A stretch of DNA of 60,259 nucleotides, filler included, from Sluysia triapertura (taxonomy: Eukaryota), in assembly GCA_046118255.1 (NCBI GenBank). It is 4 parts of 4 records of this genome, joined end to end, with 100 filler letters (N's around TTAATTAATTAA, not from the genome) between each part and the next. Parts side by side here need not be neighbours in the genome. Positions count along the whole stretch, not along the records: positions 1 to 16,933 come from JBJNIA010195598.1; 3 more parts are not named here. One strand, written 5' to 3'. Of this stretch, positions 1 to 56,471 are shown in pieces (the first letter of the stretch is position 1; each line of letters opens with the position of its first letter). The translations under genes were made by a program, and so were the position numbers. Under the pieces are notes generated by a model that was not told the DNA's origin, searched no databases, and saw only the letters and a list, made by a program, of their open reading frames with translations.

Positions 1-133
1 AGAAAAAAGCAAAGTTCTTTCTGTTTCAGAAATATTATGGTGAATGATTTACCATAAGCGCTTTTGAGTACTTTCGCGGTAGATATGAGCGCAATATAAA
101 TTAATGTATTATTATTATATTATTATTATTATA
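1..133 (+). mobile_element. 3' terminus of L2/CR1-type LINE (ORF2 end, stem-loop, ATT tail)
   Basis: Encodes KKAKFFLFQKYYGE* followed by AAGCGCTTTTGAGTA...TGAGCGCAATATAAAT and (ATT)n. Near-identical to 51347-51470, where more of the LINE ORF2 is preserved. Confidence 0.75.
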
Positions 134-2502
134 TAAAACAATCTGTTGACATGTAGACATAACAACTGTTGAGATTAGATTAGAAATTGTCTTTAGTAGT
201 TTCCGATCCGATATACAACTCATTCTAGAAGTAATTAAATAAAATGGCTGCTGCAAAATTTTCAGGCAATCTAGATTTTTTAATCAATAAAAAAATTTAT
301 TTTAATATATTATAATTATTAAATTTATTTTTGTAAAGTATAAAACTTATACATTAATCGTAAAATTGGTCTAATTTTATTAGGAATAAAATAAGGCCTT
401 TATTAAAAACACAATTTCCTTCTACAGGTATCTTTATGCAGCTTTAAAATAGCATATATTCATTTTTATGAACCTTTAGAAATGTCAATCATTGATGATT
501 TTATTGAACCATACAATCACGATAATGCTCAATTAGCTACAACGAAAGGCCTCAAACAATGATAACTCCAGACAATAAATACGTAATTTAAAATAAAACT
601 TTAAACATAATACGAAAAATAGATCCATATTAAAATAATAAAAGGAGAACAAAATATCAAAGATACAATTATTTCACATCTTATTACTTTAGAAAGTGTG
701 AGAAGTTAATATTTATATAAAAAGAAACATTTCAAGACATCAGAAATACTTCAAACACGACAGAATAAAATGCATACTTAGTGTGTGTGCTGAAAATTTC
801 ATTAATTGTTTTATTTAATGTAACAATTGTTTAAATAATTAATTTTGTTTTATGTTGGTAGATAACTTGGTAATGTAAAATTTTGGATTATTAGGCGAAT
901 CACTACAAAGTGTTTGGTTGTGAGACCGGGAATTGATTGGAAGATGAGAGAGTATAAAATAAAGACTTCTAAATTTTTAACGCACAATAACAACAATGAC
1001 ACAATTATGCAATTATCCAGTGAAGATCCATGCACAGGGTAATGTTCTTGTTTATTTTTTATTTTTATTTTATTATTTTAAAATTAAAATAAGGTAATTA
1101 ATTGATTTTATTAAAGGGAAGATAATTGTATACAAAATCATTCTAATTTTGTTTATTCTTATCATCTATTTCCTTATAAATCTGAATTGTAATCTTTTTG
1201 GTTTCATTTCACATTCAAAAAGAATTTTACAAGTCTTCTTCTACCTCAATGAATTTTTGTATATCTGTGAGTATCATTGTATCATATATTCATTAAAAGC
1301 ATTTATAGGTATAGTTATTTCTTCTACAAAGTTTATCTTTTCATCAATTCTGAAAACTTAGTAAGACACATTATCAAAATGTATAATCTCAACAATAACA
1401 ATATAAAATGGACAAATTAAAATTAAATGTTAAATTAAAAATTTATCGAAAATCTTATAGTCCAATTAAAATTTATATCAAAGTTAAATATAAATTTGTA
1501 AAGTTAGTCAAATATATCGAACTTAAACAAAACTGTAAAACTTCTAATAATATTCAATGAACTATATTTAAACTTATCATAAACTTAGATAATGAATCAA
1601 ATTACCAAACATAAATATGAATTTTTGATTTACTCGGATTTATTTTTCGTGTTCTTTAGATTTATTTCTGATTTTAAGGCATTCGAAAATGTTTATTTTT
1701 AGATTTATTTAAAATCAAGATATTTCTTATTTATTGTTCTATAATAGATACCAACCATTTTAATTTACATATTGTTTACTAAAAATGATGATTTGGGCTA
1801 AATCTTAGCCACAATGACACCTTCTACCTTATTTACATCAAGTTACTATTATTGTCATACATTACTTGACTACATACTAAGTTTTAATCATTCATTTTTG
1901 AAATAATCTAACTTAAAAATGTACCTTGTTACTATGAGATCATAATTCAATTATATTCAATATTGAATAATTTACCATTCACAAGTTCTCTAACCATCAT
2001 CATTCATTTGTATAATTCTATATTATTATTCAAATTATATTATATTGATTTTCTATCTTTAATTTATATTAATAAAGACAGAATTATATGGTAATATCCA
2101 AAAATAAGCAATTTAGGCAATATATTATACGGTATTTAATTACAAGAAAATTATGGATTGTAATAAAATAAATATATAGACACATTGCTCTTAATTGAAC
2201 ACATAAATATCAATACACATATCTAGGTTATATATATTCACATTTTTGTTATTATTTTACTAATTTAATATAGATTATTCAATAAAAAAGTTAAAATTTT
2301 ATAGTAGAAAATGTAATTAAAATTAAAAACATTTTAAAAAATGAATTAATAATTGGTCAAAGTTCAACAAATCATAATCTATAAAGTAGTTTAATATTTA
2401 TGAATTTTTATACATATGTAGAAATTCATTTTATTTGTGATTTGACAAATTAATGTGATAAACAATTTATTGATTTATTTTATTTTCGTTTTTTTTCTTA
2501 CA

Positions 2503-3651
2503 ATGTCAATAATTGATTTTACAACATCACACAATGTATCAATGAAAGAAATTAATGATTATTACAAAATTGGATTTAAACGATTAGAAAGTTATTATTT
2601 ATCATGGTATTTACCTATGACAATATTTGTGGGTTTTTTTGGTAATATCGGTTGTTTGATTTTTATGATAAAATCGAAATTATTTCCACGTAATGTATTA
2701 ATTTGGATGATTTGTATATCAGTAGGTGATTTATTGATCTTGTCATTAGATGCAACCAGAATGTTGTTAAAAGTTTGGTTTAGTTTTGATATTCGAGATG
2801 TAAATGATTTTATGTGTAAAATACACACTTTTCTATCGAATTATTTCTTTTATTGGTCCAGTTATATGCAAGCTTGTATGTCAGTTCAGAGATTAATATT
2901 GATGCTATATCCGTTACGAGCTAGAACATTCTTTACCACTAAATTAGTAGTCATAATATGTTGTGTGTTTACAGGTCTCATTGTTTTCCCGAATATACCC
3001 TATTTAATATACTGGGATGTATCGAAGAAGAAGCATGATTGTGAACCAACATCGGATTATTTGTACACTATCATTACTATTCTCGATATAATTATCTGGG
3101 GATTTATGCCTCTATTGACAATGACAACGTCAACAATAGGTATTAGTATATCTGTATTTAAGGCATCAAATGAACGACGTGAAATGTCACAACAAAATTC
3201 CAACCTAATTATTCAACCGGATAACAGTAATGATAACAACAATATCAAATCCAGTACGCACTGTTCCCAAAAAGATGGTGCTTGGCATGTTACTCGTTTA
3301 TTAATAAGCATGAATATGCTGTATTTACTAAGTGCTTATCCGTTATTAATTTACCAGATTTATTTGAATGTTGGCGGTAACAAAGTTAATCGTATAATAC
3401 CTCAACAATTACACAAAACAATTTATTACACATTACGAAGCATTTGTTATGTCAGTTCAACATGGAATTGGGTGTTTTATTTCTTCGGTGGTAGAAAATT
3501 TCGACAAACAGCGTTTAAGATTTTACATAAGCAATTGTGTTGTTTGTGTGGCACTCATATATCATCTACAGATAATACGGTATCACTACATGGAATGTCA
3601 AAAGTAAATAATAAAAATTCATCTACAAAATTCACCAATACCAATATGTAG
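2503..3651 (+). CDS. Class A (rhodopsin-like) GPCR, FMRFamide/neuropeptide-receptor-like, intronless
   Basis: 398-codon ORF, first ATG at 2503, seven hydrophobic segments. Motifs: TM1 GN (FFGNIG), TM2 D (SVGDLL), Cys at the top of TM3 (FMCKIH), DRY-equivalent SVQRL...YPL, TM6 P (SAYPL), TM7 NWVFY followed by GRKFR helix 8. Confidence 0.93.
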   Translation: MSIIDFTTSHNVSMKEINDYYKIGFKRLESYYLSWYLPMTIFVGFFGNIGCLIFMIKSKLFPRNVLIWMICISVGDLLILSLDATRMLLKVWFSFDIRDVNDFMCKIHTFLSNYFFYWSSYMQACMSVQRLILMLYPLRARTFFTTKLVVIICCVFTGLIVFPNIPYLIYWDVSKKKHDCEPTSDYLYTIITILDIIIWGFMPLLTMTTSTIGISISVFKASNERREMSQQNSNLIIQPDNSNDNNNIKSSTHCSQKDGAWHVTRLLISMNMLYLLSAYPLLIYQIYLNVGGNKVNRIIPQQLHKTIYYTLRSICYVSSTWNWVFYFFGGRKFRQTAFKILHKQLCCLCGTHISSTDNTVSLHGMSKVNNKNSSTKFTNTNM

Positions 3652-4210
3652 ATTGATTGATTCATTCTCAGTTTGATTATCTTGTAGCCAATTGGGTTGA
3701 TGTTAGTTGAAATCAACGTATCTTTAAATGTGGATCTAGACATTTCGAACGGAATATAAACCACGATCAATTTTAACTCACATTTTTTCTATATTTATAT
3801 AATGTATTTTAAATTTAAATTTAATTTGTGTTTAAAGTAGTTATTTAATAAAATAATAGTATCATTACCACTTATAAATAACTCAAGTACAACAAAATAT
3901 TGTTTAAATATTCATTACAATTATTAAAATCATGTGTGTATATTTAAATTTCAAATTTATATATATAATTTATTATTTTTTGAATGCTTTATTATAAAGA
4001 TTATATTCTAGTTTCCAATACAATTTCACAAACATACTCAAGCTTTTTAAGACCATTGAAAGTGATTTACTATAATTTACAGGACAGATCTAGATCTAAA
4101 TAATATTCAGAACTCTGAAGTGATGCTCTAAAATAATCAACCTTAGAAAGATATATTAATTAGGGTTAAACAAATGAACCAACTTTTTCTTTGTTTCTTC
4201 GTATAATAGT

Positions 4211-4683
4211 TGTCATCACAACCCTCTTAAATGCTATTAAAACACTTTAAAATCATTTAAGAATCTTTTAAAACATTTAAAACCACTAAAAAATAGTTAT
4301 TTTCGAAAAAAGAAAATTCACTTCTAAAAATAGAATAGAAGCTTCTAGAATGTTTTAGAACATTCCATCGATTACTATTGGCAGTATATAAACTAGCATC
4401 AGTTTAAATTAGTCGCCATCTATTAATCGTCATTTTGGATTTAACGACAACTTTCATTTTATACATTGTTACAACTTTATTTGCGTTGTTCCGCAATTTT
4501 GATTTAATTCAATCGACATTTTGGTGATTCATTTCAATTTTCCTTATTCCATGAAAGAATAAACTTTGTTAATATTAATAATAATCAAAATATTAAAATA
4601 TACTTAAATTTCAATTTTACTATTTTATTGTAAGAACCCAGATATACTGAGGGAAAAAATTTAACTTAAACTTTGATCCCACA
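4211..4683 (+). repeat. HSE-promoter module copy 1 (LTR-like)
   Basis: Alternating nGAAn/nTTCn array 4338-4365, ATTGG, TATATAAA 4385, TCAGTT/TTAGTC, CGCCATCT, and a 3' CCCAGATATACTGAGGG motif. Candidate ends TGTCAT...ACA, no TSD. Homologous to 4852-5328, 21055-21385 and 40880-41340. Confidence 0.7.
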
Positions 4684-4851
4684 AAAATTTTATTCATAAA
4701 ATAATTATTTGATGTTTGTTTTTTAACTTTTTGAATACATTTTAGTTGTGTATAAAACATTCTTGTAATAAAATCGTTATTGGTTGAATTTTTATTACAG
4801 AATGGATTTCGTTCAATTTGTTAGGTTGTCATTGCAAGAATAATTTAAAAA

Positions 4852-5328
4852 TGTCATAATAACACTTTAAAATTATTTAAAACTATCAAAAATTAATTAA
4901 ATCATATAAAACGCTTTAAAACCATTTATTAATCTTTAAAATCACTTTAAAAATATTTATTTTCCAAAAAAGAAAATTAGCTTCTAGAACATTCCATCGA
5001 TTTTCATTGGCTGGTGACTGGTATATAAACTAGCATCAGTAAAATGAAGATCGCCATTTTGGAAAAAACAATTTTTCGTCAATTTCCTTCAGTTTACTGT
5101 GTGATTCGAGAAATTGTGAAATCTTAGCAATCGTTCACAATTTACAGTTTTTCATCGATTTGGAAATTATCCTCCGGGTAATATCAATTCCATTTTTAGT
5201 AATTTATTTATTTGTAAGGCGATTCCTAAGTTGAAATCATAAAATTCAGGCAAATTTTATATTATTTTGTAAAGTTTTTTAAGTCCCCGATATATTGAAG
5301 GGTAAAATCCACTCAAATTATATTAACA
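4852..5328 (+). repeat. HSE-promoter module copy 2 (LTR-like)
   Basis: CTTCTAGAACATTCC-ATTGG-TATATAAACTAGCATCAGT-CGCCATTTT, plus the 3' motif CCCCGATATATTGAAGGG at 5285. Begins TGTCAT like copy 1. Confidence 0.7.
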
Positions 5329-5534
5329 CTAGATTAAACGCCCAGGGAGCTTCAATTTCTAAATTATATTATATTTTTACTTTTTACATTAACTCTAATT
5401 AAAAATTTTTTTGTATTTTGAATAAAAAATTAATAATTTTGTGTTGTTTAATAAATTATTAAAGTAATACATTTGAGCGATTGTAAGATCTTAACCATAT
5501 AACATTTGAGTTTAGATAAATTATTAGCTTACAT

Positions 5535-6786
5535 TGTTACGGAAGCGTCCTCTTTACGATATAAGACTCTGCTCAAAAATATTTTGTTGTATGTTAAGAG
5601 TTAGCAAAATTTGGCACCCGAATTGGGACCAACACAAGTTAATGAATAACGTTAAATTTTGACATAAGTTGAATGTTGAAAGTATTAAAGATAAAGTATT
5701 AAAGAGTGAATTTTTGAGTATTTGGACATTATAAACTGAATTTAAGCATTAAATTTATAAGTTAAATTGAGATTAAGCATTCAATTTAGGATAATTTTTA
5801 AGTTGTGTCATTTTAGAAGTAAGAATGTTATTATTTTTCGAGTTAAGTTAAATTTTAGTATTAGTATTTGAATTTTTGACTGTTTTAAGTCATTTTTTAA
5901 GCATTGAATTTAAATTTTTATAAGTTTTTACGTTGATTTGATAAGTTTAGGTAAGTAAGTTTAAGTAAGTTTAATATTAAATTTAAGTTGTTTAATTTTG
6001 AATTTTTATGCCATAAATGTAAGTTATTTTGCATATTTTTTTGATTAAGTTAGGTTTCCAGTAAGTTTAAGCTTTCGAATCGTGGATTTTAATAAGTTTA
6101 AGTGTTATATTTTGAATTTTTTAAGTCATGAGTTATAAGTTGTATCGAATATTTTGATAATTAACTTAAGTTTCTATTAAGTTTAAGTTATGATAAGTGA
6201 ATATTTGGAATATTTTTTAAGTATTTGATAAGTTATAGTTGATTTTTTTAAGTTTTCATTTAAGTTTAAGTAAGAATTTATAAGTTTCTTATGTATTTGC
6301 ACTAATTTTATAAGTTTTGTACGATTTTTATAAGTTTGACACTACGTTATATAAGTTTAACAGTTATTTTAAGTTGTCTTATAAGGATTTCATTAAGTTT
6401 TCATAGTATTTATTAAGTTTCATTTGATCATTTGAATTTTACATAAGTTTTAAGTAGGTTACATCCATAATTTTGATAAAAGTTAAGCATACAAATACGA
6501 TTTTCCTGCGATTTTATTGAATTAAAGTATCTTTTAGAATTTTATCTAAGTTGTTTATACGTTTTCTTGATTTAATAAGTAAATTTTATAAGTTTTTGAT
6601 CTTTTGTTAGGTTTTATAAGATATTTGACGATTTTTAAAATTACCCCACCAAGTTTTATATTAATTTTGATAATAATTTTAAGTTTATTTGACAAGTTAC
6701 CTATGTTTTGAGTTTGATTACAAGTTTATTTTATAGTTGTTAAGTTTAAGTTTATTGATAAAAGCTTCCCGATTAAGTTTTGTAAG
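5535..6786 (+). mobile_element. Possible LTR retroelement 5' end: short TG..CA segment, tRNA-Lys-type primer binding site, degenerate TAAGTT-rich internal region
   Basis: TGTTAC...TTAGCA (5535-5606), then TGGCACCCGAATTGGGAC (5612-5629), a 15/18 match to the tRNA-Lys PBS TGGCGCCCGAACAGGGAC. This is followed by about 1.1 kb of C-poor sequence full of TAAGTT words. Confidence 0.5.
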
Positions 6787-6944
6787 TGTTAGACTTCGTA
6801 AAATGGACTGACCGGGGATCGAACCCGGGACCATCGTCTACGCAGTCGATGCTCTACCACTGAGCTATCAGCCCCGTCTAACAAATTCATTTTTATTAAA
6901 TTCAAGTTTACCAAATGGCACTTTTAGGCCTTTTTACCCCAACA
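6787..6944 (-). mobile_element. tRNA-cassette mini-element copy 1 (pseudo-tRNA-Ala-like at 6804-6874)
   Basis: Highly similar to 18087-18246 and 23053-23214. Has an A box (TAGCTCAGTGG), a B box (GGTTCGATCC), an acceptor stem GGGCTGA/TCAGTCC with G3:U70, a TTTT terminator and a non-canonical anticodon arm. Confidence 0.8.
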
Positions 6945-7810
6945 ATTCGCTCGCGCCTACCATTTCATTTGCGCAATACGAATATAAACACTCAAACCTT
7001 ATATAGGCAATCCAAGAACTTTCCGCAAACTATTGGATATGATGAGAAAATGCATCATATACTTAAGGGCTTCCTCGGTCTGAAAAATTTTCCATTTAAC
7101 AAATTAACAAAATCATGGTGGCCTCAGTTTAATTTCCTCTTACGATGACTATATATGCCAGAATACAACTTTTTAATAGTTGAAAAACCCTAATTCGCAT
7201 CCTAGCTTTACTGGAAATACCCCGGAGTCGCTTCTGACAGACTGAATAAAGTTGATAATATGTCTGATGCCCTTTTGTGGCTAAATGGTGTTAAAGCCGG
7301 TAAACGCGCAAAACTTCAGACATGGTGGACAAAAATTCGCCGATCAATCCTTAATCTGTTCCGCAAATATAAAATCAGTGTCAGCTTCGTTTATTGTGAG
7401 GAACACATTAAACTGAATGTTAAATATGACATTCTTGGAGATTTCGAAGTTACTTTTAATCGGTTTCATAAAGATAAAGTGGGGAAATATCTGCATGAGC
7501 TGATTAATCATTCCAACACCAATTCCGGGAAATCCCGTAAAGTCAAAGGTCGCTTTGTCGAAAAGTCCTCTATCTGGTCGTCATTTCCCCTCCAATTAAG
7601 AAACCAGTGTTGGATTTTCATGACTAAAGCCAGGAAAAATATTCTGAAACTTAATTTTTGAACCAAAAAAATTCTACTTAATCTTCCTCTTACCTGTCGT
7701 TGGTGTGGCTTCGAGCGAGAAACTCTTGCTCGTATATTATGTCTTTGTCCACATAGAGTCAGTGGCCGTACAGTAAGACATAATAAAATTTTAGGTGTTT
7801 TGTGTTTTGA
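6945..7810 (+). mobile_element. Degenerate RLE-type (R2/NeSL/R4-like) non-LTR retrotransposon, C-terminal region
   Basis: ORF fragments 6915-7148 and 7260-7661 continue past a stop into CRWCGFERETLARILCLCPHRVSGRTVRHNKIL, the CCHC zinc knuckle plus RHN motif that precedes the restriction-like endonuclease. Frameshifts and stops are present. Confidence 0.75.
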
Positions 7811-7919
7811 GGGCGTTTGTATTCAATTTTAGTCTTAAGATTTGATGATATCGTCATGTTTTTTCGTTAGTCAGGTATAGTATGATTTTAATTTTAAATT
7901 CTTTTAACAAATTATAAAT

Positions 7920-9250
7920 CTTTATATTTTAGACTTAAATTTAATAAATTTAGTTTTAAAAATGTCAAGAATTTTATCATCGTTTATTTTATAAAAATCT
8001 AATAAATACATGATCATTACGTAATTCTTTCTAAAGAGCAAAAAACCTTTTAATATACTAATACGAAAATTTAAGACAATAAGATTAATTGACATATATT
8101 TGAACAGCGACAAAATTATATTTGAATTTAAAAAATTGTTTTCCACTTCTATTTCTTCTTCTAACCCCTCGTAGCGTAGTATGCACTATTGCGCTTCACC
8201 TTCCGGTTGACAAATGTGTGAACTAAAATATGTCAAGAAATGTAAAAAATTAGCACTCACGCAAATTGTCTCTAGGTTTAGGACGCCTTCGACAAAACAC
8301 TCTGGAAATTCTTCAACTATGCATTCATATATCAAAATCTTGCGTCGCAGTACTTTGTTGGAATATTGGTACTGGTTCACCAAGTTTAGATCTTTAAATG
8401 AGTTTCCATACATAACAAAGCTTCTGATCCTTGAGTTGTTTAAATAAGTAACATTTGACCCATTGTTGATCATGAGGATAATAATATTTAGGCATAAATT
8501 GGTCATGTCTATCAGCACTTTAATAATTGTTTGTGACCAAGCTAATGATGCAGTCTTTCCCTGTACTGTACTTAAATCTACGTCATGTAAATAACAATCG
8601 TGATCACGATCATAAAATCTAAACACATATCTGTTCCGTAATTCTCCTCTTTGACTATCGTGCGCGGCTTCGGCATTCATACAAGCTACATCAACTGAAA
8701 ATTGTTGATACGATAAACACAAATAATCAGAATGAAATAAGAAACTTTTAAAATATTGTTCAACATCTTTATCGATTTTCTGTCGCTTTTTATAAATCTA
8801 TGGAACTGTGGGGAAACCATCTTACGAGATGGATACGAATATTTCATGAACGCTTCATAAATATTTTCTGTGATTGTTTGTAAATGAACTTCGTAATTTT
8901 GTATAGGAAAAATAGAGTGTAATCCGAAATAACTTAAAATGATATTGATCGATTTACTAAATTGTTCAATCTCTGAAACGAAATATAAGTCTGCTGTTGA
9001 GGGATGAAATGGATAACATAAATCAATTAAAACTAGATCTTCCGATGAGAGTGATTTCATTAAATTATAACAAAAGATATAATTGTTGTCTTTTACATTT
9101 TCATATTTTTGAAAATACACGTTTAATGATTCTGCACTGGTAATAAGATTTAGATCGCCAACAAACAGTTTGATACATAAATCTAATTTGGTATACTTCG
9201 TTTTAATAGCATTATTGTGGTTTATGTTTTTTTATTTAAAGACAATAATA
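7920..9250 (-). pseudogene. Multicopy EF-hand-like gene family, copy A (N-terminal part)
   Basis: Overlapping ORFs 8686-9120 and 8186-8722. Contains the EF-hand-like loop FRFYDRDHDCYLHDVDL. Peptides align with copy B (FVMYGNSFKDLNLVNQ vs IVIYTNDFNRFVFVNQ) and copy C (ITENIYEAFMKYS vs IKENFIDSMKYT). Confidence 0.6.
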
Positions 9251-9424
9251 ATTTTTATTTTTATCTTAAAAATTTTTCTAATGTTTATTCTGTAATTAGT
9301 AGTAAATAGTTCGCTAATACTGCATTCTTGCCATTGGTTGTCCAATCACGACTCTTATAATACACTGTACAATTTTTGCGTCGTAATTGGATGTTGGTGC
9401 AAATAATTAATTTGTGGTATTGAA

Positions 9425-9486
9425 CCACCATCAATAGTGACATATGAATAAAAATAATGAATAAAGTGTCACCATTGATGATGGCG
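9425..9486 (-). other. Conserved long hairpin upstream of family copy A
   Basis: Minus strand reads GCCATCATCAATGGTGACA...TGTCACTATTGATGGTGGT (about 19-bp stem with G.U pairs). Homologous to 13111-13173. Confidence 0.7.
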
Positions 9487-10924
9487 ACAACCAAAGTAAT
9501 TTGATTTTTAAAATTATTAGTTGATTGATAATAATAATAACAATAATAATATTGTTATTATATTATTAGTAAATAAAAATTAATTTACATAAATATTTCT
9601 GTTGATTAAAATCCACATGAACTTTTCTTTCAATATCTAATATTTCTTACATATAAATAAATAAAAAAAGAGAAACAGAAACAGATGGCATCTGTGAAGG
9701 AGCAACGGTAACGAGATATACTACGTATCAGTTATCGTTGTTACATCACGGCAAGACAATGAATTCTTTAAAGCTGTAATAAATTTGTTGAGAATTCTTG
9801 AAGTTAAATGGTTTGAATTGTAAGTGAAATAAAGAATGTTAGAATAAATTCTTAGAATTTATTTAAGGTTTATAATTGAAAACAATATATATGCATTGAA
9901 TATAATGGTTTGAAATACTTATTGAAAGGTTGGAGTTTATTTAATTTAAAATACTATTACGAAATAAATCTTAGCGTAATTGTAGTGTCGTTAAAAATGA
10001 GTATTGATAATGAACATGTGTAAATGAAGTGGGTTTAGTTTGGTGTAGTTGGTTAGAGATTTTAATGTAAATGTTTTCTATGTCTGAGGTACTTGTTAAC
10101 GTTGTTAAATGGTGTTTATATATTTATGGTTTCTGTATTATATATTATGGTTATGGTTTGTTTGATAAAATAGCTTTTGAGTGAATGTTGTGGATTATTC
10201 GGGATTGATTATCAGAGTATGTTGTGATTCGATTTGAAAAAATAGTTTCATTTAAACAATAATTTTAATATTTATTAATATTTACAAATTTTTACATTTA
10301 AAATTTTACTTATTTAATTTATTAATAGAAAATTTTTACAATTTTTAATATATTTAATTTTAATTTCAATATTTAGTGTTTGCACACAATAATATTTAAA
10401 TATCTCATGGACTATTTTAAGACTATTTTATAATTATCCAATTCAACCTTTTGAAAGCGGAATATTTCAGTTTTAATTGGTTTATTTAATTTTATTAAAA
10501 TTATATTTATAATGACTAAGATCACTTGATTCATTTTCAGATTAAAAATTTACACTTTCGACTTGTTTACTTTGCTATTGATTGTTGTTATCGATCTACT
10601 GTGGTACTGAATTGAAATATTGACAATTAATGAATTAATTTTAGAAAAACATCATGAATCCAGCTCGAGAAATGGTAGAATCGGCAGTCCCTCGTCTAAA
10701 TTCTAAAGAAAGTGGCACAGTACGCATTGATCCGTAATGTTTTAATGTCAAAAGTACAAAAGAACTTAACTTGAATTTTTTTCAGCTATTGCGAGGAACA
10801 AGTGCTGCGTTATCTAAAAAATCATAAAATTTGCTCTTATGAAATGTGTACCCCGTTCTGTGGTTATGTGGAAATTCCATTCCAATTTTTAAATACCTTA
10901 GTTAGACCTTCTATTTTTTGGGTA

Positions 10925-11130
10925 TCATTAATTATAATTATATTATTACTAATAATAATAATGATAATAACAATTATAGTTGTAATAATAATATTATTAT
11001 TATTAATATTATTATTAATTTTAAATAATATTATTATTAAATTTATTATTATTAAATTTATTTAATAATAAATTATTATTAAATAATTATTATTAATAAT
11101 TATTTAATAATTATTATTATTATTAAATTT
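10925..11130. repeat. Degenerate (AAT/ATT)n low-complexity tract
   Basis: About 200 bp made almost entirely of AAT/ATT triplets. Confidence 0.85.
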
Positions 11131-11139
11131 ATTTCTAAT

Positions 11140-12200
11140 ATCGTTATTATTATATTTAACATTAGATTCATTACGAACACAATTATCGTCGTCCATGTAC
11201 AAGTAATTATGAAATTGGTGCTTAAGGCACAGAATTTTTATCATTATTGAAAGTCTTAATATAAAAATTGCACGAAAACTTTTTATTAATTTTACAAACA
11301 AAAAGAAAGTGTTTTACACACTTGTTCAATAATCACTTTCAAGACAAAACTTAACAAAGTTTCCTTCATCATAGTAATCAAACTAACTAGATTGTCCAAG
11401 AGTACAGTCAGAGATGCTGTTACTACGTATTTGCAGTTCACTGCGCGGGTCATGTCTCGAGCGATACATAGTCCTGGATAACCTATTCTGAATTATTGAT
11501 TTCCGGATTCTGCCTAGGGCTGAAAAACGAGTTTAATGCACCTAAGTAAATCCTTATAACATGACACACAAGACGATCTTTAGTACTACAAAAACTAAAA
11601 ATTACAAGAATTATAAGAACTAAAAAGGCAGAATGAATAGTTATAATAAAAGAGCGGTTTTATAACGAAATTTGTCATTGGAACGTAAGTTTCCGTAAAA
11701 ATTGCCTTAATCACTGTGCAGCCGTTGTGATACATATATTCGAAACATCAAAATTCGTATATCTAATTTGATCGAGTTATTAATTACAATAAAATTTAAT
11801 TTTACAATTACAATAGAAAATTCAAATTTAACGTTTTTAATTACTATAAAATTTATTTCAACACACTCATTCAGCTCTTGCATGACTGAACTATATCGTT
11901 AACAGCATCTTCAATATCCTTTTCTTTGGTATCACGAGCGACACTATAAATTGAATCGAGGTTGCAAAGGTAGTTTACTTACGAACCGCATTAAAAGTAT
12001 CGATTGAATATAGATTTTATAAAGTGACAGATTCTGCAACAACTTTGTATAATTATTTTTATAATGGATTTTTAAATAATCTCAAACGGGGTAATAAGTA
12101 GAAAAGCTTTGAGGATTGTTAAACCGATCCAAATTAAAAAGATGTCAGTAAACAAAACTTTCTTGATAACTTTTAGGGTTAGTTTTAGAAAATATTTACT
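11140..12200 (-). pseudogene. Multicopy family copy E (middle part), split by a solo LTR
   Basis: Exact 14-mer TGTGCCTTAAGCAC (CLKH) shared with copy C at about 48236. DTFNAVRK here aligns with NMFNVVRR in copy B (about 14465). Confidence 0.5.
11323..11863 (-). mobile_element. Solo LTR (541 bp) with 4-bp TSD CACT
   Basis: Ends TGTTCAA...TTCAACA (imperfect inverted ends, TG..CA). Flanked by CACT at 11319-11322 and 11864-11867. TATAAAAA on the minus strand near 11660. Confidence 0.75.
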
Positions 12201-13110
12201 GATTGTTTGAAAATTTATTAAAATAACAAATTAAACAATGAAATTTGTGTGGTGCCGAACCTATTACTTTTAATAAATTTTATTTAGATTTTTCCTTTAA
12301 TACAACAAAATCACATTCACCTTCAGAATATACAAAGCACATTTTAAAAACATTTTTTTCACATAGTCCCACATCAACATAATCAAAATAACATGTTTTT
12401 AACATCACACAACCACCTTTTTAGATTGTACCAAAACATAGTCTATAACTTATCTTCTTTACATTCACTAAACCACACTCTTTTCAATGCACTTTTAAGT
12501 CACAATCTACTAACATCCAAACATTATTTTCATTCATAACATCAATGTATATTTAAAAATTCACATAAAACATTTATATATTATCTCAAAGCACTTAAGT
12601 CATAAGTTTTTAACACCCAAACTTATCTTCAGTTAAGACAATTAAATATCATTTAAAAAACCATTTAAAACATTTTATGCATCATCTAATAATATTAAAA
12701 TCACAATTACACCTTAAACCATCGAACACACATCTTTAAGTCAATCCAAAACATTCCACGCTTGCAATATTTTTACAGTTAGCCTCTAAATTCACCGAGA
12801 AACATTAGCTCAACACTTTTAAAACATTCAAATTGCTTCCTTTTAATATATAGTCACACATTAATTCTTCTACCACCTCTTTCTACACATTACATGTTCT
12901 CAGTAGAAGTCATGTAAGAAGTCATATCCTTAAACTTTAAATATGTTCATAAAAAAGAAATTTATTGAAGAAAGATCGTGTTCTTTCGTATTCAAAGGAT
13001 TTATGCATTTTTGGATTAATATTATTATTATTATTATTGTTATTATTATTACCATCTTTTTTATTCTAGATTATTTTGATGTCTATTTTATTAAAAATCA
13101 ATTTGGTAGC

Positions 13111-13173
13111 TACCACTATCAATGGTGACACTAATAATTCACATATACAGTTACCGTGACTATTGATAGTGGT
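13111..13173 (+). other. Conserved long hairpin upstream of family copy B
   Basis: ACCACTATCAATGGTGAC...GTGACTATTGATAGTGGT with a perfect 12-bp outer stem. Preceded by an ATT tract and TTTGGT, as in copy A. Confidence 0.7.
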
Positions 13174-13439
13174 ATTTTGTTTAACAAACAGACATTTAAT
13201 CTATTCATACTACTTTACTAAATGCCGATTGATGACAACTAACTACAAACTTACTTCATCGTGTTCAAATGACTGCCCAATTAGAATTATCGACATTACG
13301 TACTTTTTATGTTTTGATTAGGCAGCCATTCACAACATGAGGAGTATTGACCATTTTTAGTTTGTAAGTAGTACCTTATTATTATACATTTATTGTCATA
13401 ATTATAGTAGCAGAAAATTCTAAATTTTGTGTTCTGTTT

Positions 13440-15420
13440 TTCATTTAGAAAATGAATTTTGAAAGCAATATTTCATACAACTTTATTAATTCTACAATTA
13501 AATCGAAATTTCGTGCATAGTTAATTAAACTATTTCAATATTTATCTGGTCTTATTAAAGTGTATTTAAAACCGTCTACGAATTATAGAAATCATGAAAA
13601 TATTATTTTAATTAGTCAAAGAATTGAATCACTTGGTTTTGCTAAGAGTTCCGTAAAGAAAAATCAAATGTTTACCACATTACCATACATTACAATGTCT
13701 TTTCATTATTTGTTTAATAATTTCAGATTTTTGCATCATATGAGATACGATGAAGTGAATGGTATGTTTTATAGTTATTCAATCGAGTCTTGGTTTGTTT
13801 CACCTTGTTGTGCTTTATCACGAGATTTGAATAAATTTCTACAGATTTATAAAATTGATTCTGATTACCGGCCTCTATACTGACATGACAGATTATGATG
13901 ATAATCGAAAGTGTTCCTCAAAACTATTGGACTTTGATTACTCAGAAATGAAAATATTGCACTGTCTTCTAACTGAAGACTTTTGGTTCAAATATTTTTT
14001 GTGCGTCTTCACAGTAAGAGGAGGTATTCAGTGCTGGTTTCTGCTGGTGCGATTAAGTTATTAGATGTCGATCAGTTTAATAATTAGTAGATCTTATAGG
14101 TCGTCCTATCAAGGCAGTATTAAATTAAAAATGAATGATAAATCTAAAGCTGATGTTTATCCAGTTTTAACAGCTGGTATAGTAATATACACAAATGATT
14201 TTAATAGATTTGTTTTCGTAAATCAAACAATGTTATATGATACTTTAAGAAACAAATATATTTTTTCAAATATGATTTTCAATTCCAATTGTTCAATATT
14301 GATAAAGCAAGCAATGAACCATGGAAACCATAGAAAAAATTGATGAAATTCTCATTTATAATATTTATCTACATGTTCTTCATCCTAGACTCGATGTTAA
14401 TGTTTCAAAACAATTTACTAATCAAGATCTAGAGTAAATGATTACTCGTCTGGATAGCTATGAAAATATGTTTAATGTAGTTAGACGTGAAATTTGAGGA
14501 CTCTCATCACCAGTTTCAGTAACAAAACTAGATTAAGCATTGACAACATTATCGGAATATTCTCTAAATGCTATTCGACTTCAGAAGTTAAAGTATCAAC
14601 CAAAAATCTAAAAGAACGTGCCTTTTATGAATTTATCATGTCAATTCGTACAGAATTATCTGAAAACAGTAAAGACAAATTTGAGATGATTCAAGGGATA
14701 TTGAGTTTTTAGTAGGAGGAGATATAATTAGTCGTATTGATTGGATTGATCCAAATCAAAATGTAAAGCTTGCGCCAATAGTTACTAGTATAGTTTATGA
14801 TTACTCTAAGTCATACAAAAGCATGTTCGAGACCGCTATATAAGCTACAGAAGATAATGTATTGAATATAAAAATGATTACGCTTTTTGAGATTCTAGCA
14901 ATAAATGTAAGCATAAAGTTATTTATAAATAAAATTCGACCAATTAACTTATCTCGCTTAAACAAAGATGATAAAGCTGAATGTAAAAAGGGCTTGAGGA
15001 AGTGCCCAGTACATCTTCATATTGATTTTCACGAGAAACAACACGGTAACGACGTATCTGAGAATCTAAGTTCTTTCCGATCGTCCGCTGTAAATTCGAT
15101 TCGTCGCAATTTTTTCAAAAGTTTTCTTATTTATTTCTATTACATTAACAATAATTTGATTTCCGATTATTTTTTAGATAGCGAAATATGGTCACAAACA
15201 AACTGCATATACGGAACAAAGTCATAAATATTAAATTTTTATATTTTGATATAGCAAATAAAATTTTATAAATGTATCTTCATTCATTTATTATTTATAA
15301 ATTACAAATATTCCCAATTTCGTTAAATTTAATAAAAATTAACTTAGAAGTAAAAAGTTTCATAAATCAAATAAATTCTTTTAAAACAACTCGACTATGA
15401 TTCACATGGAAGTTATTTTC
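13440..15420 (+). pseudogene. Multicopy EF-hand-like gene family, copy B (frameshifted)
   Basis: Chain of same-strand ORF fragments (13560-13883, 13855-14064, 14065-14343, 14494-14712, 14862-15227). Clear DNA identity with 48390-49080, e.g. TTTTGAGATTCTA.CAAT.AATGTAAGC, ATTCGTCGCAAT and GCATATACGGAACAAA. Confidence 0.7.
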
Positions 15421-15443
15421 TAAAAGAAAAACCATAAAAACTT

Positions 15444-15717
15444 NNNNNNNNNNNNNNNNNNNNNNNNNNNNNNNNNNNNNNNNNNNNNNNNNNNNNNNNN
15501 NNNNNNNNNNNNNNNNNNNNNNNNNNNNNNNNNNNNNNNNNNNNNNNNNNNNNNNNNNNNNNNNNNNNNNNNNNNNNNNNNNNNNNNNNNNNNNNNNNNN
15601 NNNNNNNNNNNNNNNNNNNNNNNNNNNNNNNNNNNNNNNNNNNNNNNNNNNNNNNNNNNNNNNNNNNNNNNNNNNNNNNNNNNNNNNNNNNNNNNNNNNN
15701 NNNNNNNNNNNNNNNNN
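15444..15717. other. Assembly gap (274 N)
   Basis: Run of N without a linker. Confidence 0.99.
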
Positions 15718-16041
15718 TGTAAAGTAAACATACAGTAATTCTATTCTAAAACTATAATTCTAATGTAAAATACACACACTTTAATACATAATTCTAAAAA
15801 TAAATATAATTCTAAAAATAAATATTGATTTTATAAATTCTAATATTAGATTTTTATCGTTTTTAATTCTAATGGTATTATTGTTATTTATTTAAAGTCA
15901 TTATTAATATTATTTTTTTAAAAATTAAATAACATTTCTTTAAATTTTATATTTTAAATTTTAAATTTTCTAAATGTAGGTCAAGGTGACCATTTCTCTA
16001 TTATAAATATGCATAAAAAATTTTATAAATCTTTTACAAAA

Positions 16042-16205
16042 TTCTATTACGTCGAGATTTATATTGGAATTCTTTTACGTGGAGATTTTATATTTGGAAC
16101 AAAATTTTTGGAATAATTACTACGTTTTGGAACAATAAATTTGAAAAAATTCTTTTACGTGGAGATTTTATAATTACTGCGTCTCGGAACAATAAATTTG
16201 AAAAA
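16042..16205. repeat. Compound minisatellite
   Basis: Three copies of TTCT(A/T)TTACGT(C/G)GAGATTTTATA interleaved with two of TAATTACT(A/G)CGT..(T/C)GGAACAATAAATTTGAAAAA. Confidence 0.75.
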
Positions 16206-16933
16206 GATTCACCTGCGATTTCTTATACATATATTAACTGTTAGTTCGTTTTTATAGGTTTGCTCAATTTTAACTGATAGTAAAATTTATTTATGTCATT
16301 TAAATATTTTCTTTAAAAACCCCCTTTTTAAGAGGGAAATAACTAACAGACAAAAGAGATTATATCATAATTCTTTAAATTTTATATTTATATATATTTA
16401 TTCATATTTTGTATATTAATTTCCATAAGTTTTATTTAGTTTTAATTTCATTGAATAACTAACCCTAAGGTCCCCGATTTTATTCGGTGGTAAATTTTAC
16501 GACAAAATCATAAACCAATTTGATAAAAGAAATGAAGGTACGCCGTTTTTACACGGTCGAAAAATCCAGGCAAAATATTTTTGAAGTTTTTTTATAATTT
16601 TAATAATCCTTTAGCGAATTGATTAATATTCACCTCAATAACCGTAAAAAAGAATTTTTTAAATTTTTAAAGAACTGATATAAGTATAAATTGATTACTA
16701 TACCTAATAGGAAAGCAACGACATTTAAGTTTTCCACAGCAAATTATCATCGAGTAAAAGCTAATTTAGTACTTTAATAATAAATTCTAGAATACAGCCT
16801 ACAACTTAGCCCTTAAGTGCGTAAGACTAAGATGTAGTGGCCAACTCTATAAGTTAAGATTTAAAACAATTTCATTAAAATAAAATTTATCACAACCATA
16901 CTCTGCAACTACAATCACCACACAATTCATCAC

Positions 16934-17033: not shown

Positions 17034-18086
17034 TTCTCTATAGTTATCTTACTATTGCAGTTCATCATAATGCCTCGTCTTAGTTCTTTAATAACATTCA
17101 ACTTATTCTGTTATCCTAAGTTTTGACCCTTATTTTTCACTAATCCCAACAAAAGTTACAACGATAACCTTAAAGTTAAAAGATAGGATAACGATGATTA
17201 TATATACCTTCATCTTAAAATTGAAAGTTACCATATTAATGATGTCAATTATAAAAACTATAACCTTAAACCCATAAACAATGGCAATCATAATGATAAC
17301 TATAAAGACGATAATTGTGAAACTAAAAGTTATAATACCATTCAATACATCAATAATGCGTATTACAAATAGGATGAGTCTAAGACATAATTGATCGCAG
17401 TTTGCCATTCTGTACCGACCAATGTAGTTTATGTATTGGTAATGGAATCCTATGTTCTTATTCACACAATAATTGAATTGGAAGCTCAGAGGAACTTCGG
17501 ATCAATTTGTGATTGGCAATCTTCTAGAGTGAACGGATTTTTAAAAGACCTTCTGGTACGGATTTCTAGAGGCGTGGAAAATAAACAGTATCGAAACGAA
17601 CAAGTAACTCTTAATTTTATGAATAATCATAACATTATAAATTGTGTTTATTTTTAGGTGCAGAACATGGTAGTGTGAAGATCGTGTGCAGGACCCTTTT
17701 TGTGCTTAACAATATTAAAATAACATTATCTTATATATTTTTATAAAAGTTAATAAATCATTGTTTATTTTAGAGTTTTTTCTAAAAAAGTTTATTTTTA
17801 AAGAAATTTTTATAATTCAATTAAACAATTTTCATAAAATTTATCAATTAAAGTCAAAACGGAATTTAATATTTCATAGATATACAAAACCACAACACAA
17901 GGATTAAATTGAATCGAAATTTATTAATAGTCATGATTCTCTTTGTTTGCTTCAACATAACTGTACCATGATCTGTAGTCAGTATAATGAATGGTTATAG
18001 AACCTATAATAACATCTATTTAAATTGCGACATTTTGTCATAATTAGACCATCTTGTAAATGATTAACATTATATTATTGATTAAA

Positions 18087-18246
18087 TGTTAGACTTCGTA
18101 AAATGGACTGACCGGGAATCGAACCCGAGGCCATCGTCTGCGCAGTCGAAGCTCTACCACTGAGCTATCAGCCCCGCCTAACAATTTCAGTTTTTTTATT
18201 AAATTCAATTTTACCAAATGGCACTTTTAGGCCTTTTACCCCAACA
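18087..18246 (-). mobile_element. tRNA-cassette mini-element copy 2 (pseudo-tRNA at 18104-18174)
   Basis: Same TGTTGGGG...GTCTAACA unit. Flanks share only AAA on both sides. Confidence 0.8.
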
Positions 18247-19621
18247 AAATTTATATAATTTGTCATTTAATATTTAGTGAAACTAAATCAAAGATGGAAA
18301 CACGAATGAATGAATCAACAATTAAAATTTGTTCTAACTTGATTACATTATTTATTTATTTCGAATACCATAATTAATTCATTGAAAACAAATATCGACT
18401 TGATTGAAGTATGTAACTTAAGAAGGTTGAAAGCGGTCTCCTAGCACAGGATGTACGTCATCTTTACAATTCTTACTAAATGGCGTATATTCAATAACAG
18501 TTTAGAATAACTTTGGCGACTGTTTTAACACAACTACACGAGAAATTAATTAATCCGAGAATTACTGTCTTAAACCATTTAAAAATCAAAACGAAAATAA
18601 TTAATTTAGAGCATTTATAGCAACATTGACTAAGTAAATTAGCATTTATAAGGAAACTCTTTTTAGCAAAATGCACAATGAGTGTACATAAAATAAAGAA
18701 AAATGATAATAAAATAAAAACGATATTACTACTACTATGACTAAATATTACCATTATGAACGATTGTAAAATATTTTAAAAAAGCTGAAAATGTGAAAAT
18801 AAAATGTTCCATTGTTTTATAGGGGTGCGATATTTAAGAATTTGTGTTATGACGTGAAGAGATTAATGTGTTTCGATGAATGCATTGATATTGATTGTGT
18901 AGCTAAAATGTAAATATTGTTTGTGGTTAACTTTTGTTATGTGTGGATAGATAATTTGGTATAAAATTCTGGATTATGAGGTGAAACACTACAATAGATC
19001 AGTCGGTTTTCTTTTGCATTTGTCAATAGAGAGCTTTTCTGATTTCGCGTAATTACACAGATACGACTAACATTAACCAAAACCAATAAAGGTACCCACC
19101 ATTCGGTTATTCTATTAAAAAGTGTCCTTACACTTACAATCTATTTGTGAAGTACAATTAATTCTAATATTGAAAAATTCCCAGTTTTTCTACGAAATAG
19201 AACTTCTTCCATGATAATATCCCAATCTATCCGTAGTATTATCAGCTTTCGTAATTCATCGACATCATTAATAAAACTAATAAATCCAACTTCGATTTGA
19301 GAAATAAACCGAATAACAAAACCATCTTAAAACATTGTTCAATGTTTGACCTTCTTCAATGAAGCACAAAATTAGATCGCAAAACTTTAATACTAATGCT
19401 ATAAAAGAATTAATTTACAACATAAGTATTTCAAAACAATAAACGTTGTATTTCTAAAAAAAATCAAATAAAGTTTCAACTGTAATTTAAAATTACAAGT
19501 CTCATTAAACGTGATTTATTATTGGAATTTTCTACACACTAATTAGTGATCATATAAAAACACGAAATACATTTGCTTAATTAATAAAATTAAAAGCATT
19601 TACATATCACCAAGCTATCCT

Positions 19622-20091
19622 TCAATCAGTTACAAGTACATAAATCATACTAAATTAAAATATAAACTTAAAAACCAAACTAACCAGTATAAATAATAAA
19701 AAAATGACAAAATATAAAACACTATTTTACCCCAACTTTCAAATACTGCTTTATTTAACTGCTCTGCATTTAGAATTGTTGTAGGATCATATAATCCAGC
19801 ACCGCGGATTAATGGACGATTATAATAACGATGAATGTGATACGCTAGTAAAGGTAGATTAAATATAACTGTACCAAATTGCCCAGCTATAATAAATGAC
19901 AACGTCATCAAAGCATGAATGCCATATTCAGGTAATATTAATGGATTTAAGCCTTTACAGACATCGATCGGATTTTTATAATCTGTTTTCAGTTCATCAA
20001 ACGCTATAACTAAATAAATCGTAAAAAATATCAATACAATTGATAATAACAATGCTGCTATATAACAAAATGCAACAAATCCAAATGCCAT
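19622..20091 (-). CDS. cni: Protein cornichon (ER cargo receptor), two exons 19685-20091 and 19622-19649
   Basis: Contains IAFDELKTDYKNPID, LNPLILPEY and GLYDPTTILNA. Removing a 35-nt GT-AG intron (19650-19684) gives the canonical C-terminus FFYYLYCMIYVLVTD*. Confidence 0.96.
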
Positions 20092-21054
20092 CACTCAAAT
20101 AAAACTTTAAATTGAAATATGTTAAAAATATGTAGTTAAAAAATATGTAATTAAATTCCTAAATATTTATAAAATTAAAAATATACGTATAAATCAAAGT
20201 ATAACTTAGAAAAATAAAATGTAAAAACAATTTTTAATAAAAATTATTAAAATATATTAATTCAGAAAATCTTAATTGAAAAATATAAATTTATAAACTA
20301 AAACAAAATATATTGGAAATAATTTCTATAAAAATGTGATTTAATAGAAATATTAAATATTTTAATACTTTTTAATATATTTTAATGTATTTTTTGATAA
20401 TTATTTACGAATATTCGTTCAAACAACTATGATCATGAAAATTAAATATGTATATTTTACGTATTACAAAACTAATATTTTCAAAAAGCGATGCATGAAA
20501 TATGAATAATTAATATGAATTAGTTATTACAATTATGTAGTTACATCTTGATATGAAGTATACTCAACTTCTCACTCTACATTCTTAATATCTTTTGATA
20601 CATTTCAAACATAAGCTTATACCAATTCTAACACATCCCAAAGCTACCAATTTTAAAATATACTCATAAATAAACTTTCAGACCGTACTTCTGAAAATCT
20701 TTATTTCAATTTTAGATGTATTAGTATTATTATATATTAGTATTTGTATATTTTATTTTAATTTCCTTCAGTTTAGTCAAAAGTCTATAATATATAAATT
20801 GTAAAATATTAATATCTATTACAAAGTACTTCCAAGCGCTTATGATAAAATCAATTACTATAATATTGCTGTGATAATATAAATTTTATCAGGGTCCCTT
20901 ATACAAAAAAATTCTGATATTAATCTTCAAAATTAATGAAAATAAATTAATTATTATAAAAATGTATTAGGAAAAATAAAAATCATTATATAAGTGGGAA
21001 TTATTTGACAATTACAAAATAAATTAAAATATTGCAAATTTAAAATTAAAGCCT

Positions 21055-21385
21055 TGTTGAGCCTTCCATTTTTAGCCGTTATTAATTTTAATAATAGATT
21101 CTAACCCTCATTAAATCGGGGATTAACGGAATTACTAAATATGAGTTTAAATATGAGTACTTTAAAGATTTTACATTTCGCTTTAATAATATGAATAAAA
21201 AATCGATAAATAGTCGAAATGATACAACCAATTTGATGTGACCAAAATCTTAGAATGAAAATATATTTTTTCTTGTTGTTATTGTAGTATGTAAGTGACT
21301 GAATTTATGCTAGTATATATAGACCAATAAGTAGCCAATCAGAATAGATGGACATTCTCGAAAATTCCAGAACATTCTAGAATAA
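21055..21385 (-). repeat. HSE-promoter module copy 4, more diverged
   Basis: Minus strand has TTCTAGAATGTTCTGGAATTTTCGAGAA, two ATTGG, TATATATACTAGCAT, TCAGTC, and the 3' motif CCCCGATTTAATGAGGG (21104-21121), ending ...CAACA. Confidence 0.65.
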
Positions 21386-23052
21386 ATAATTCGATGAATA
21401 CCTGTAAATACTGTAAATAATACGAATACTAATATTATATAAATAGTTAAAAGTAAAACAAAATATCAATAATCAAAATATATCAAAATATACTTGATAT
21501 ACTGACTATTGAAATTATTAAGGTTTAAGCTGATCAAGATAATAATATTGATTTTAACAGATTTTAAAGACGCAACAGTATTATTATTTAAATAAATAAA
21601 TTTTTTACACAGTTTTTTATTGTGCAATTTTGATTTTTTGCCTTTTTTTACTATTTTTGTTAATTCGTAGTAAATTTGTATATTCTTGTATGAAAATTCG
21701 TCAAATTTTGTTTTAGCCGGGGCGCTCAAAACCCTAAATCCGGCCCTGGTAATCCGTTATATGAAAATAATAATATTTTCTTGAAATTATCGAAATTATC
21801 CATGAATTCGATATGTATTAAACAATTTATTCGACTACTGAACAATACATCGCATCGAATTGATTATCAAAGATCATCAGTACAAAGTTTAACCTCATCG
21901 GTTGACAATTTAATACCCTGATCAAAATACTTAATAGAATCATTAAATAAACAATTAGACAGTAATATTCAGGTAGAGATGTATTAAATAGTATGCGTTT
22001 GATTTAAATTATCAACATTCAAATAATGCTTCTTATCTCTGTATTATCTTATATCAGAATTTATAATGATGTATCTATGAAGATTTATTTCCAATATTTA
22101 AATGAATGAATAATATGGAGCACCTCTAATTTAATTTAAGAGTTTATTTTGGGCTTGGTGGTGACAGAGATGACGAGCATAAAGAAGACATATTAAAATA
22201 CATGTTAAAATTTTTTGTAAATGATTAAAATATTATTTTAATTTATAAATTTTATTATTTCACATCATACAGAAATTAATGTTATTTGTGGAGTGCCTTA
22301 TTATATGCTCATGGTGGTAATTTTTGTATGTGAAAGGTTGAACTATTACCATATATGTGTAAATTGTTTAAATTAGAAAGATACGAAAATTTTACTCTTG
22401 AAAATGCAAAGTTACATTTGCGATTTAATTTAATTAAAAATTGTTTGGTTTAATAATTTTATGAAAAATGACTGTACATGAAAAAACAACATACGAATTA
22501 AAGTATAATTATTAATATTGAGATGTTGCGCAAATAATGTAAAAATTATTTAATTTTATTTAGTTTTCTGTAATGTAAAGTTAAATTTGTGCATGTTGTA
22601 ATGTTTAAGCATAATCAAAATATATCTATCAGATAAATGTTTTTAAGATATAAATTCAAACAAGTTATTAAAATAGATGTATTAAAAATTTTTATGGAAA
22701 ACAAATTTGACATTTAATTAATTTTGTGTTTTCTTTAAGTTGATGTATTATTTGAATAGTAAATATTATTGTGATTATGGTGTTACATTTAGTTTTTCTT
22801 ATGTTAACAGATAAATGAATTGTCTGTTACAAATCCAAATATATTTTGGTAATTTCTAGGAGACGAAAAATTAGCAGTCAATGGATATTAACATTAAAAT
22901 TTAATTATTAAAATTGGTCAGTTTGTAACCAGCTCAAAAGAATAAGTAATTACTTTTACACTTCCAATTTCGAATCTCCTTGGAAATTATACAATTATTA
23001 TATAAGTGATCACATTTTTGTCAAATATGCAAGAGAAGAAATCAATAAAAAA

Positions 23053-23214
23053 TGTTGGGGTAAAAGGTCTAAGAAGTACCAAGTAGTATAATTGAATATA
23101 TTTAAAAAAATGAAATTGTTAGACGGGGCTGATACCTCAGTGGTAGAGCATTCGAACTGCGCAGCGATGGTCCCGGGTTCGATCCCCGGTCAGTCCATTT
23201 TACGAAGTCTAACA
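23053..23214 (+). mobile_element. tRNA-cassette mini-element copy 3 (pseudo-tRNA at 23126-23197)
   Basis: TGTTGGGG start. TGTTAGAC (23117-23124) and GTCTAACA (23207-23214) are perfect inverted repeats bracketing the tRNA-like unit. AAAA on both flanks (possible 4-bp TSD). Confidence 0.8.
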
Positions 23215-23990
23215 AAAACGCCAGAAGATTTAAGTGAAGAAAAAAATTTGACTAAATTTAGAAAACTGCTTTGACACAATTAAAGTGATAACTTATTCTT
23301 TGTCAACTGGCGAGATTCGATAATATTATTCATTTTGTTTGAATACGGACTTTGACATTTTGTTTGTTTTGGCATTTCTGGATTTTGAGTATTTTGTTTA
23401 TTAAATGATTGTATAAAGACACTGATTTATAATTAAGAATATGTATTATTTCTGTAATTAGAGAATCATCAATACGTATTGTACTGAAAATATATCAAGA
23501 TTTCACTCAAACTTAATTATTGAGTTATTGTTGATAATTTCAAATCAAGTCACAACACAATATCGTAAAAATGCTCATTATTGTCTAAATGTTCTAAAAT
23601 ATAATTTGATATGTTTAGTCAGTTAAGCATTAATTCGAAAACATCTATTAGATTTAGCCGATTGTGCAATTTCCAAGTGGGATTAACTGGCACTAAATAC
23701 TAAATAAAAATAATCTCGGTAGATGTTTCACATAACTAATATAAAGTTATTATTCACAATAGTAATTACATTTAACAAAATTTTTTAAAATACAAAAAAT
23801 ATATTATGTATAATATAATATTGTATCCTTATGCTTAATTTCTCCATGTTCCATGAATAGCAACCAAGCAATACCACTTGGTAAGCATCATCAATAGAGT
23901 AATTAATTTCAAATTAGTGATATTCAAACACTGCATTAGAAAATCGAAATAATTCATTAATGATAAATGACCATTCATTCAATAAAGTGC

Positions 23991-24022
<32 letters not shown>

Positions 24023-27959: not shown

Positions 27960-28260
27960 CTTCTACTACTGTTACTACAAAAACTGCTACTACTACTACT
28001 AGTACTAGTACTACTACTATTATTATTACTACTACTACTACTTCTACTACTGCTCTTCTACTACTATTACTACTCCGACTATTACTACTACTATTATTAT
28101 TACTACTACCACTACCACTGCTACTACTACCACTACTACCACTAGTACAACTATTACTACTACAACTGCTACCACTACTACTACTATTACAACTACTACT
28201 ACTCCTACTACTCTTACTACTAGTACTACTACTACTAATAATAATAATAATAACTAGTAA
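27960..28260. repeat. Degenerate (ACT)n microsatellite grading into (AAT)n
   Basis: About 300 bp of ACT/ACC/ATT triplets. Confidence 0.9.

Positions 28261-55766: not shown

Positions 55767-55830
<64 letters not shown>

Positions 55831-56428: not shown

Positions 56429-56471
<43 letters not shown>

Follow-up and report, generated by a model that had tools for sequence, protein, structure and literature searches.

Chimeric copies that bring together fragments of several parental genes are already known in animals, where partial, multi-gene retrocopies mediated by long terminal repeat (LTR) retrotransposons have been reported (Tan et al. 2016, PMC5131818). Host-gene fragments are also carried, next to a repeated structured end, by Pack-TIRs (PMC8277862) and Helitrons (PMC4224331), in which serial capture yields shared blocks with differing neighbours. 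In a 60,259-nucleotide stretch (filler included; hereafter, the window) of the genome of Sluysia triapertura (assembly GCA_046118255.1), which consists of four scaffolds separated by N-spacers (1–16933, 17034–30456, 30557–42439, and 42540–60259) and has a G+C content of ~25%, five pieces of long open reading frames (ORFs) had been interpreted as decayed copies of one massively repeated, unrecognised family: A (7920–9250, minus strand), B (11140–12200, minus strand), C (13440–15420, plus strand), D (45900–49333, plus strand), and E (35312–35790, plus strand). We find instead that A, C, and D appear to be mosaics assembled from broken fragments of host genes that are unrelated to one another, namely, genes for an EF-hand/PPP phosphatase, for a DNA primase and, likely, for a CCCH zinc finger protein, and that these fragments might have been joined through template switching by a reverse transcriptase; we assign this reading a probability of about 0.5.

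The mosaics resemble the LTR-mediated chimeric retrocopies in that the copies are partial and apparently intron-free (here, by comparison with relatives from outside the window) and that several parental genes contribute to one unit; they differ in that the published retrocopies (PMC5131818) are young, LTR-flanked and show microsimilarity at the joints, whereas no LTR flanks were found here in the self-comparison of the window. The resemblance to Pack-TIRs and Helitrons lies in host-gene fragments associated with a repeated structured end and in the shared blocks with differing neighbours, and the difference from those systems (PMC8277862, PMC4224331) is that no paired ends with a target-site duplication emerged here, as judged from the two hairpins. 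Because the defining end structures were not found, we liken the mosaics to these systems without making them members of any. The fragments and the hairpin discussed below are the following.

8567–8874, minus strand: core of piece A, a fragment of an EF-hand/PPP phosphatase gene (profile positions 201–302 of 817), with a frameshift near 8776–8782
9088–9168, minus strand: start of an RRM, a weak lead from a targeted scan covering the first 27 of 70 profile positions (Pfam RRM_1, E 0.036, 14.4 bits, cut-off 20.7)
8189–8560, minus strand: in-frame continuation of A from another source, 124 codons, possibly leucine-rich repeats (LRR; unproven, an Atlas lead)
13879–14238, plus strand: degraded PRIM1 (DNA primase small subunit) copy in C (PDB phmmer E 3e-8; Pfam DNA_primase_S E 8.7e-4)
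14865–15429, plus strand: C copy of the block shared by C and D, without the ~210–230 bp that hold the finger, ending 14 bp before an assembly gap
47917–48345, plus strand: ORF of 142 amino acids (aa) that lies before the shared block of D and has no relation to the sequence before the block of C
48383–49104, plus strand: D copy of the shared block, a frameshifted counterpart with 69–92% identity to C over six ungapped blocks
48610–48720, plus strand: likely CCCH zinc finger, with the Unkempt type as the best match (Pfam zf-CCCH_UNK E 4.9e-5, 23.6 bits, cut-off 31.1; PDB 5elh E 0.37)
9425–9484, minus strand: 60-bp hairpin with 17–18-bp arms upstream of A, after a TAT-type microsatellite (read on the minus strand)
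13113–13172, plus strand: the other 60-bp hairpin copy, located upstream of C, after an ATT microsatellite

The parentage of piece A was traced through a degenerate pattern derived from its EF-hand region, which retrieved 30 metagenome loci; one of these, L002, encodes (at 18–2573) a full ORF of 852 aa with Nudix, EF-hand, and PPP domains. A search with L002 yielded 114 relatives (P0007–P0120), and a family profile of 817 positions was built from 115 members of ~800 aa. The members, mostly labelled uncharacterised, combine EF-hand domains (Pfam PF13499/PF13405) with a phosphatase domain (PF00149) and, in some cases, a NUDIX domain (PF00293), and are found in ctenophores, sponges, cnidarians, spiralians, arthropods, echinoderms, hemichordates, and amphioxus. 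No description of this family was found by a full-text search of the literature, with most subscription journals outside its coverage; the family with its optional Nudix domain is a side result of some value. In the window, the profile matched only at 8782–8567 (positions 232–302, 42.9 bits) and at 8874–8776 (positions 201–233, 9.9 bits), the two matches being contiguous across one frameshift. The frameshift-aware profile score of piece A, 89 bits, exceeds the reversed-profile maximum of 37.5, hhalign ranks the two piece A ORFs first and second among 163 (probability 95.9%), and the identity to the best family members is 31–36% over 60–72 residues. The likeness to invertebrate EF-hand/PPP proteins, which the initial annotation proposed, is thus borne out, as is its remark that no phosphatase domain follows the EF-hand lobe in A: the PPP sub-profile stays near null, with a best score of 24.7 bits over 160 window tiles compared with 22.5 for the reversed profile, and the Nudix and linker sub-profiles likewise produced nothing above null over these tiles. 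Since the matches are confined to the EF-hand lobe, A is a truncated copy that shares this lobe with the family and differs from it in retaining only ~100 of the 817 positions, in being frameshifted and in lacking the phosphatase domain, the gene copied being that of a calcium-binding phosphatase. A short match to the family linker motif close to where scaffold 1 ends (16790–16847, plus strand) is not significant (25 bits versus a null maximum of 32).

Piece A is uninterrupted at a site that carries an intron in all 18 distinct intron-bearing relatives, and its similarity to the family ends at about the next conserved donor. In 18 of the 19 distinct relative contexts, the exon is delimited by AG before a RAFD-type motif and GT after EF[RK], the 19th being the intron-free L002; the AG test alone is weak because L002 passes it via coding sequence, and stop-bounded short frames back the presence of introns in the relatives. 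The in-frame tail of A (8189–8560) has an LRR protein as its first Atlas match (score 0.82), which we treat as a lead only, given that searches of Pfam and PDB gave no support for LRR; there was no match to the PPP family either. Direct protein searches with piece A and an Atlas search with its first ORF returned no match, and single-sequence folds of A and D have a mean pLDDT of 34.

The central portion of piece C matches DNA primase over 120 collinear residues with no intron-sized gap; 16 PDB sequences were matched (best E 3.1e-8), and human-type sequence entries score best, far above the classes at 5e-4 and 0.013. The copy contains an in-frame stop, and the SGRRG..H motif, which has a catalytic role in primases, is aligned to TVRGG..Q. 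In collinearity and significance, it looks like a PRIM1 pseudogene; the differences are the stop, the changed motif and the junction with unrelated downstream sequence. What we take to be a further primase-like motif lies in another frame at 14384–14410, and PDB searches with the start and the middle portion of C gave nothing usable beyond the primase copy. The downstream block that C shares with D is preceded by unrelated sequences in the two pieces. Its dN/dS over four segments is 0.59, not distinct from neutral (Fisher p=0.13), with 20, 19, and 18 differences at the first, second, and third codon positions, respectively. The block probably holds an Unkempt-type CCCH finger, as suggested by the match in D, where one finger was matched and the other putative finger was not detected by Pfam; a search of 1.84 billion proteins with the D ORF produced two matches, both repeat-driven and uninformative.

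The ORF fragments are present where the initial annotation placed them, spread over three of the four scaffolds, and long frames are in excess in the window (12 ORFs of at least 140 aa compared with none in each of 10 local shuffles). The claim that all five pieces match one another and tile into a single unit of 3 kb did not survive: only one of the 10 pairings, C–D, is homologous (z 18–43), and every other pairing failed to align when composition was corrected for. Self-blastn (C–D E 5e-29) and tblastn connect no other pair among A–E. In composition-aware DNA alignment, C–D has z=17.8, with the remaining 19 of 20 comparisons between −1.3 and 1.8, and in a frameshift-aware, composition-adjusted alignment C–D reaches z=42.7, with the remaining 13 of 14 between −1.3 and 2.7, where the 2.7 comes from an 18-residue A–B match outside the coding frames of A. 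Unadjusted BLOSUM62 protein alignment gave marginal values for C–E (p ~0.02) and D–E (p ~0.03), which become z=0.7 and z=2.0, respectively, after composition adjustment. Among the window tiles, the claimed partners rank 104 of 590, 173 of 592, 14 of 592, 95 of 592, and 143 of 590, compared with 1 of 592 for C–D. The motifs quoted as links are present in the sequence, and most of them occur at chance frequency: FH.ST, MKY[ST], FN.VR, CLKH, and NIKIF each appear 0.3–1.2 times per shuffled window, with DYF.DSE (0 occurrences in 20 shuffles) standing apart. These ranks and frequencies imply that the 3-kb tiling consists mostly of chance words. With only C and D aligning, and with parts of the pieces being known genes (the primase and the CCCH finger), a single massively repeated family is not what these pieces represent, and the very high copy number deduced from it has no basis in this window; nor did we find support for an effector family.

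In A, C, and D, direct evidence shows which genes the phosphatase and primase fragments come from, that these fragments are truncated and broken, that unrelated fragments are joined on one strand within each mosaic, and that one block occurs twice, behind different upstream sequences. The mosaics are most likely products of transposon machinery, with reverse transcription as the favoured route because the conserved intron is missing, the primase copy is collinear, the joints are same-strand, and retroelement debris is found nearby. Under this scenario, the reverse transcriptase of a retrotransposon would copy host mRNAs and switch templates, such that unrelated fragments would become joined on one strand; the chimeric copies would subsequently decay, and the shared hairpin would be a remnant of the 5' end of the carrier element. 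We infer both the RNA route and this role of the hairpin, and likewise infer that the mosaics are non-functional, which is likely. Several observations weigh against this reading. The host ORFs for a G protein-coupled receptor (GPCR), cornichon, and a bZIP protein are also long without introns, and because several host ORFs here are intron-free over their length, the absence of the intron is weak evidence; furthermore, the intron missing from A may have been lost in the lineage, and a copy made at the DNA level could just as well end at a donor site. The frame of piece A (181 and 203 codons, interrupted once, by a frameshift at a short A run) is cleaner than that of old debris should be, and the RRM, LRR, and CCCH labels are all below the curated cut-offs. 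The self-comparison of the window showed no LTR pair flanking A or D (C ends at the gap), and visual inspection revealed no obvious poly(A) tail.

A somewhat unlikely alternative is that a non-autonomous DNA element of the Pack-TIR or Helitron type carries the mosaics as cargo, with the hairpin as its end and the fragments acquired by serial genomic capture. Such capture has been described in animals (PMC8277862, PMC4224331), and the C/D block behind differing upstream fragments is compatible with it, as is the hairpin, which fits DNA capture better than the RNA route and is found, alongside a microsatellite, on the 5' side of both A and C. The two hairpins have the same span and nearly alike arms, and the alignment score of the module is 102, compared with a maximum of 93 among 300 shuffles; the hairpin pattern has four exact matches versus 1.1 expected at up to 3 mismatches, a count that is partly circular because the pattern was drawn from those sites. 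However, the similarity further out from the hairpin is not significant (p=0.13), a pattern search of the window found no hairpin near D, B, or E, and, with the two hairpins taken as the ends of one element, the best target-site duplication is 5 bp, equalled by 187 of 300 random pairs of positions. No transposase or Rep/helicase was matched in the ORFs scanned. Gene-capturing Helitrons are characterised by a 3' hairpin with a CTRR end and by empty sites; here, there is no CTRRT on the 3' side of A, and the AT-rich candidates near D and B are without a clear hairpin. The inverted-repeat listing of the window is dominated by AT-rich noise. The earlier idea of mobile-element cargo thus holds in a weaker form, via the shared hairpin and the mosaic build. 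Between the two hairpins, at 10655–10860 on the plus strand, is a small ORF that is apparently spliced, with a GT..AG intron of ~52 bp.

Distinctly unlikely is an origin by simple duplication and rearrangement, in which independent segmental duplicates and pseudogenes accumulated and were shuffled in a repeat-rich region and the hairpin is an unrelated small element: the scaffolds are small and AT-rich, with several unrelated repeat families, and no element ends were found, but random rearrangement would not be expected to join fragments in frame and on one strand, as in A, or to remove the conserved intron. It is very improbable that all five pieces are highly diverged members of one lineage-specific family that arose from the EF-hand/PPP gene and in which the C/D block is a degenerate phosphatase domain. 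On visual inspection, certain spacings in C, D, and B are reminiscent of the linker and PPP motifs, and the start of B is the second-best tblastn match of a family member in the window (E 4.5). Yet the family-profile scores of B, C, D, and E do not rise above null, and hhalign ranks their ORFs from 13 (with a single aligned column) to 145 of 163, with probabilities below 1%; moreover, the middle of C is a primase, and the finger of D matches CCCH models. The view of the C/D block as a degenerate PPP domain is not supported (p 0.11–0.66 in 10 of 10 restricted profile tests), and the same view of the tail of A found no support from profile tests or hhalign. An endogenous virus or viral cargo is hardly credible: apart from a single weak match of D to a viral contig (48% over 24 residues, with an E value of 1e-3 that is relative to the candidates only), searches of one viral-contig collection with four queries found no relative for A or the primase piece, and the primase copy is closest to human-type primase entries.

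Mobile-element debris is scattered over the window. A decayed pol remnant of an LTR retrotransposon occupies 36200–37270 on the minus strand, including a reverse transcriptase RNase H domain (E 2.4e-6) near 37.0–37.3 kb, on the same scaffold as E and ~1.3 kb from it; downstream of the RNase H, there is what we presume to be integrase-like wording, for which no Pfam match was found. Next to the 3' end of A, a nearly open frame with a G+C content of ~38% (6950–7830, plus strand) ends in CxxC..H..C followed by RHN, an arrangement presumably akin to that of restriction-like-endonuclease non-LTR elements; in Pfam, this frame has only a weak zinc-finger match (E 0.046). A tRNA-derived SINE-like repeat is present in three copies of ~165 bp that are 87–92% identical (6783–6947, 18083–18254, and 23045–23214), and a dispersed repeat of 60–130 bp, promoter- or LTR-like and containing ATTGG and TATATAAA boxes, occurs at 4297–4406, 4982–5059, 21307–21352, and 40877–41009. 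Smaller repeat families include one at 1–118, 20787–20871, and 51347–51468 and two others at 817–908 with 18907–18994 and at 43240–43361 with 43695–43828.

The remaining two pieces are listed separately.

11140–12250, minus strand: piece B, stop-riddled, with no detected homology to A, C, D, or E
35294–35767, plus strand: piece E, an ORF of 157 aa, with no detected homology to A–D

Piece B had no match in Pfam, in PDB (two of three frames searched) or to the family profile, and piece E had none in Pfam or to the family profile. Upstream of E (34957–35140), there is a distinct inverted repeat with 20–21-bp arms and a loop of ~140 nt, followed by a 7-bp tandem repeat. The host ORFs in the window encode a rhodopsin-family GPCR, cornichon, a Maf bZIP protein, and a protein with a fibronectin type II domain, a set that indicates an animal genome. 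At a scaffold end (42140–42415, minus strand), there is a fragment of a class II tRNA synthetase (Pfam tRNA-synt_2 E 5e-21), which is the head of a 358-aa frame.

As debris, the mosaics would have little significance. A bolder proposal, which we consider unlikely, is that a new non-autonomous element, ending in a microsatellite and the 60-bp hairpin, densely captures and reshuffles host-gene fragments of this small, AT-rich genome into long in-frame chimeric ORFs and that A, with its RRM start, EF-hand lobe, and LRR-like tail, is still translated, its frameshift being an assembly error. If the hairpin were indeed the end of an active gene-shuffling element, this would amount to a route of exon shuffling in a compact animal genome, with testable products.

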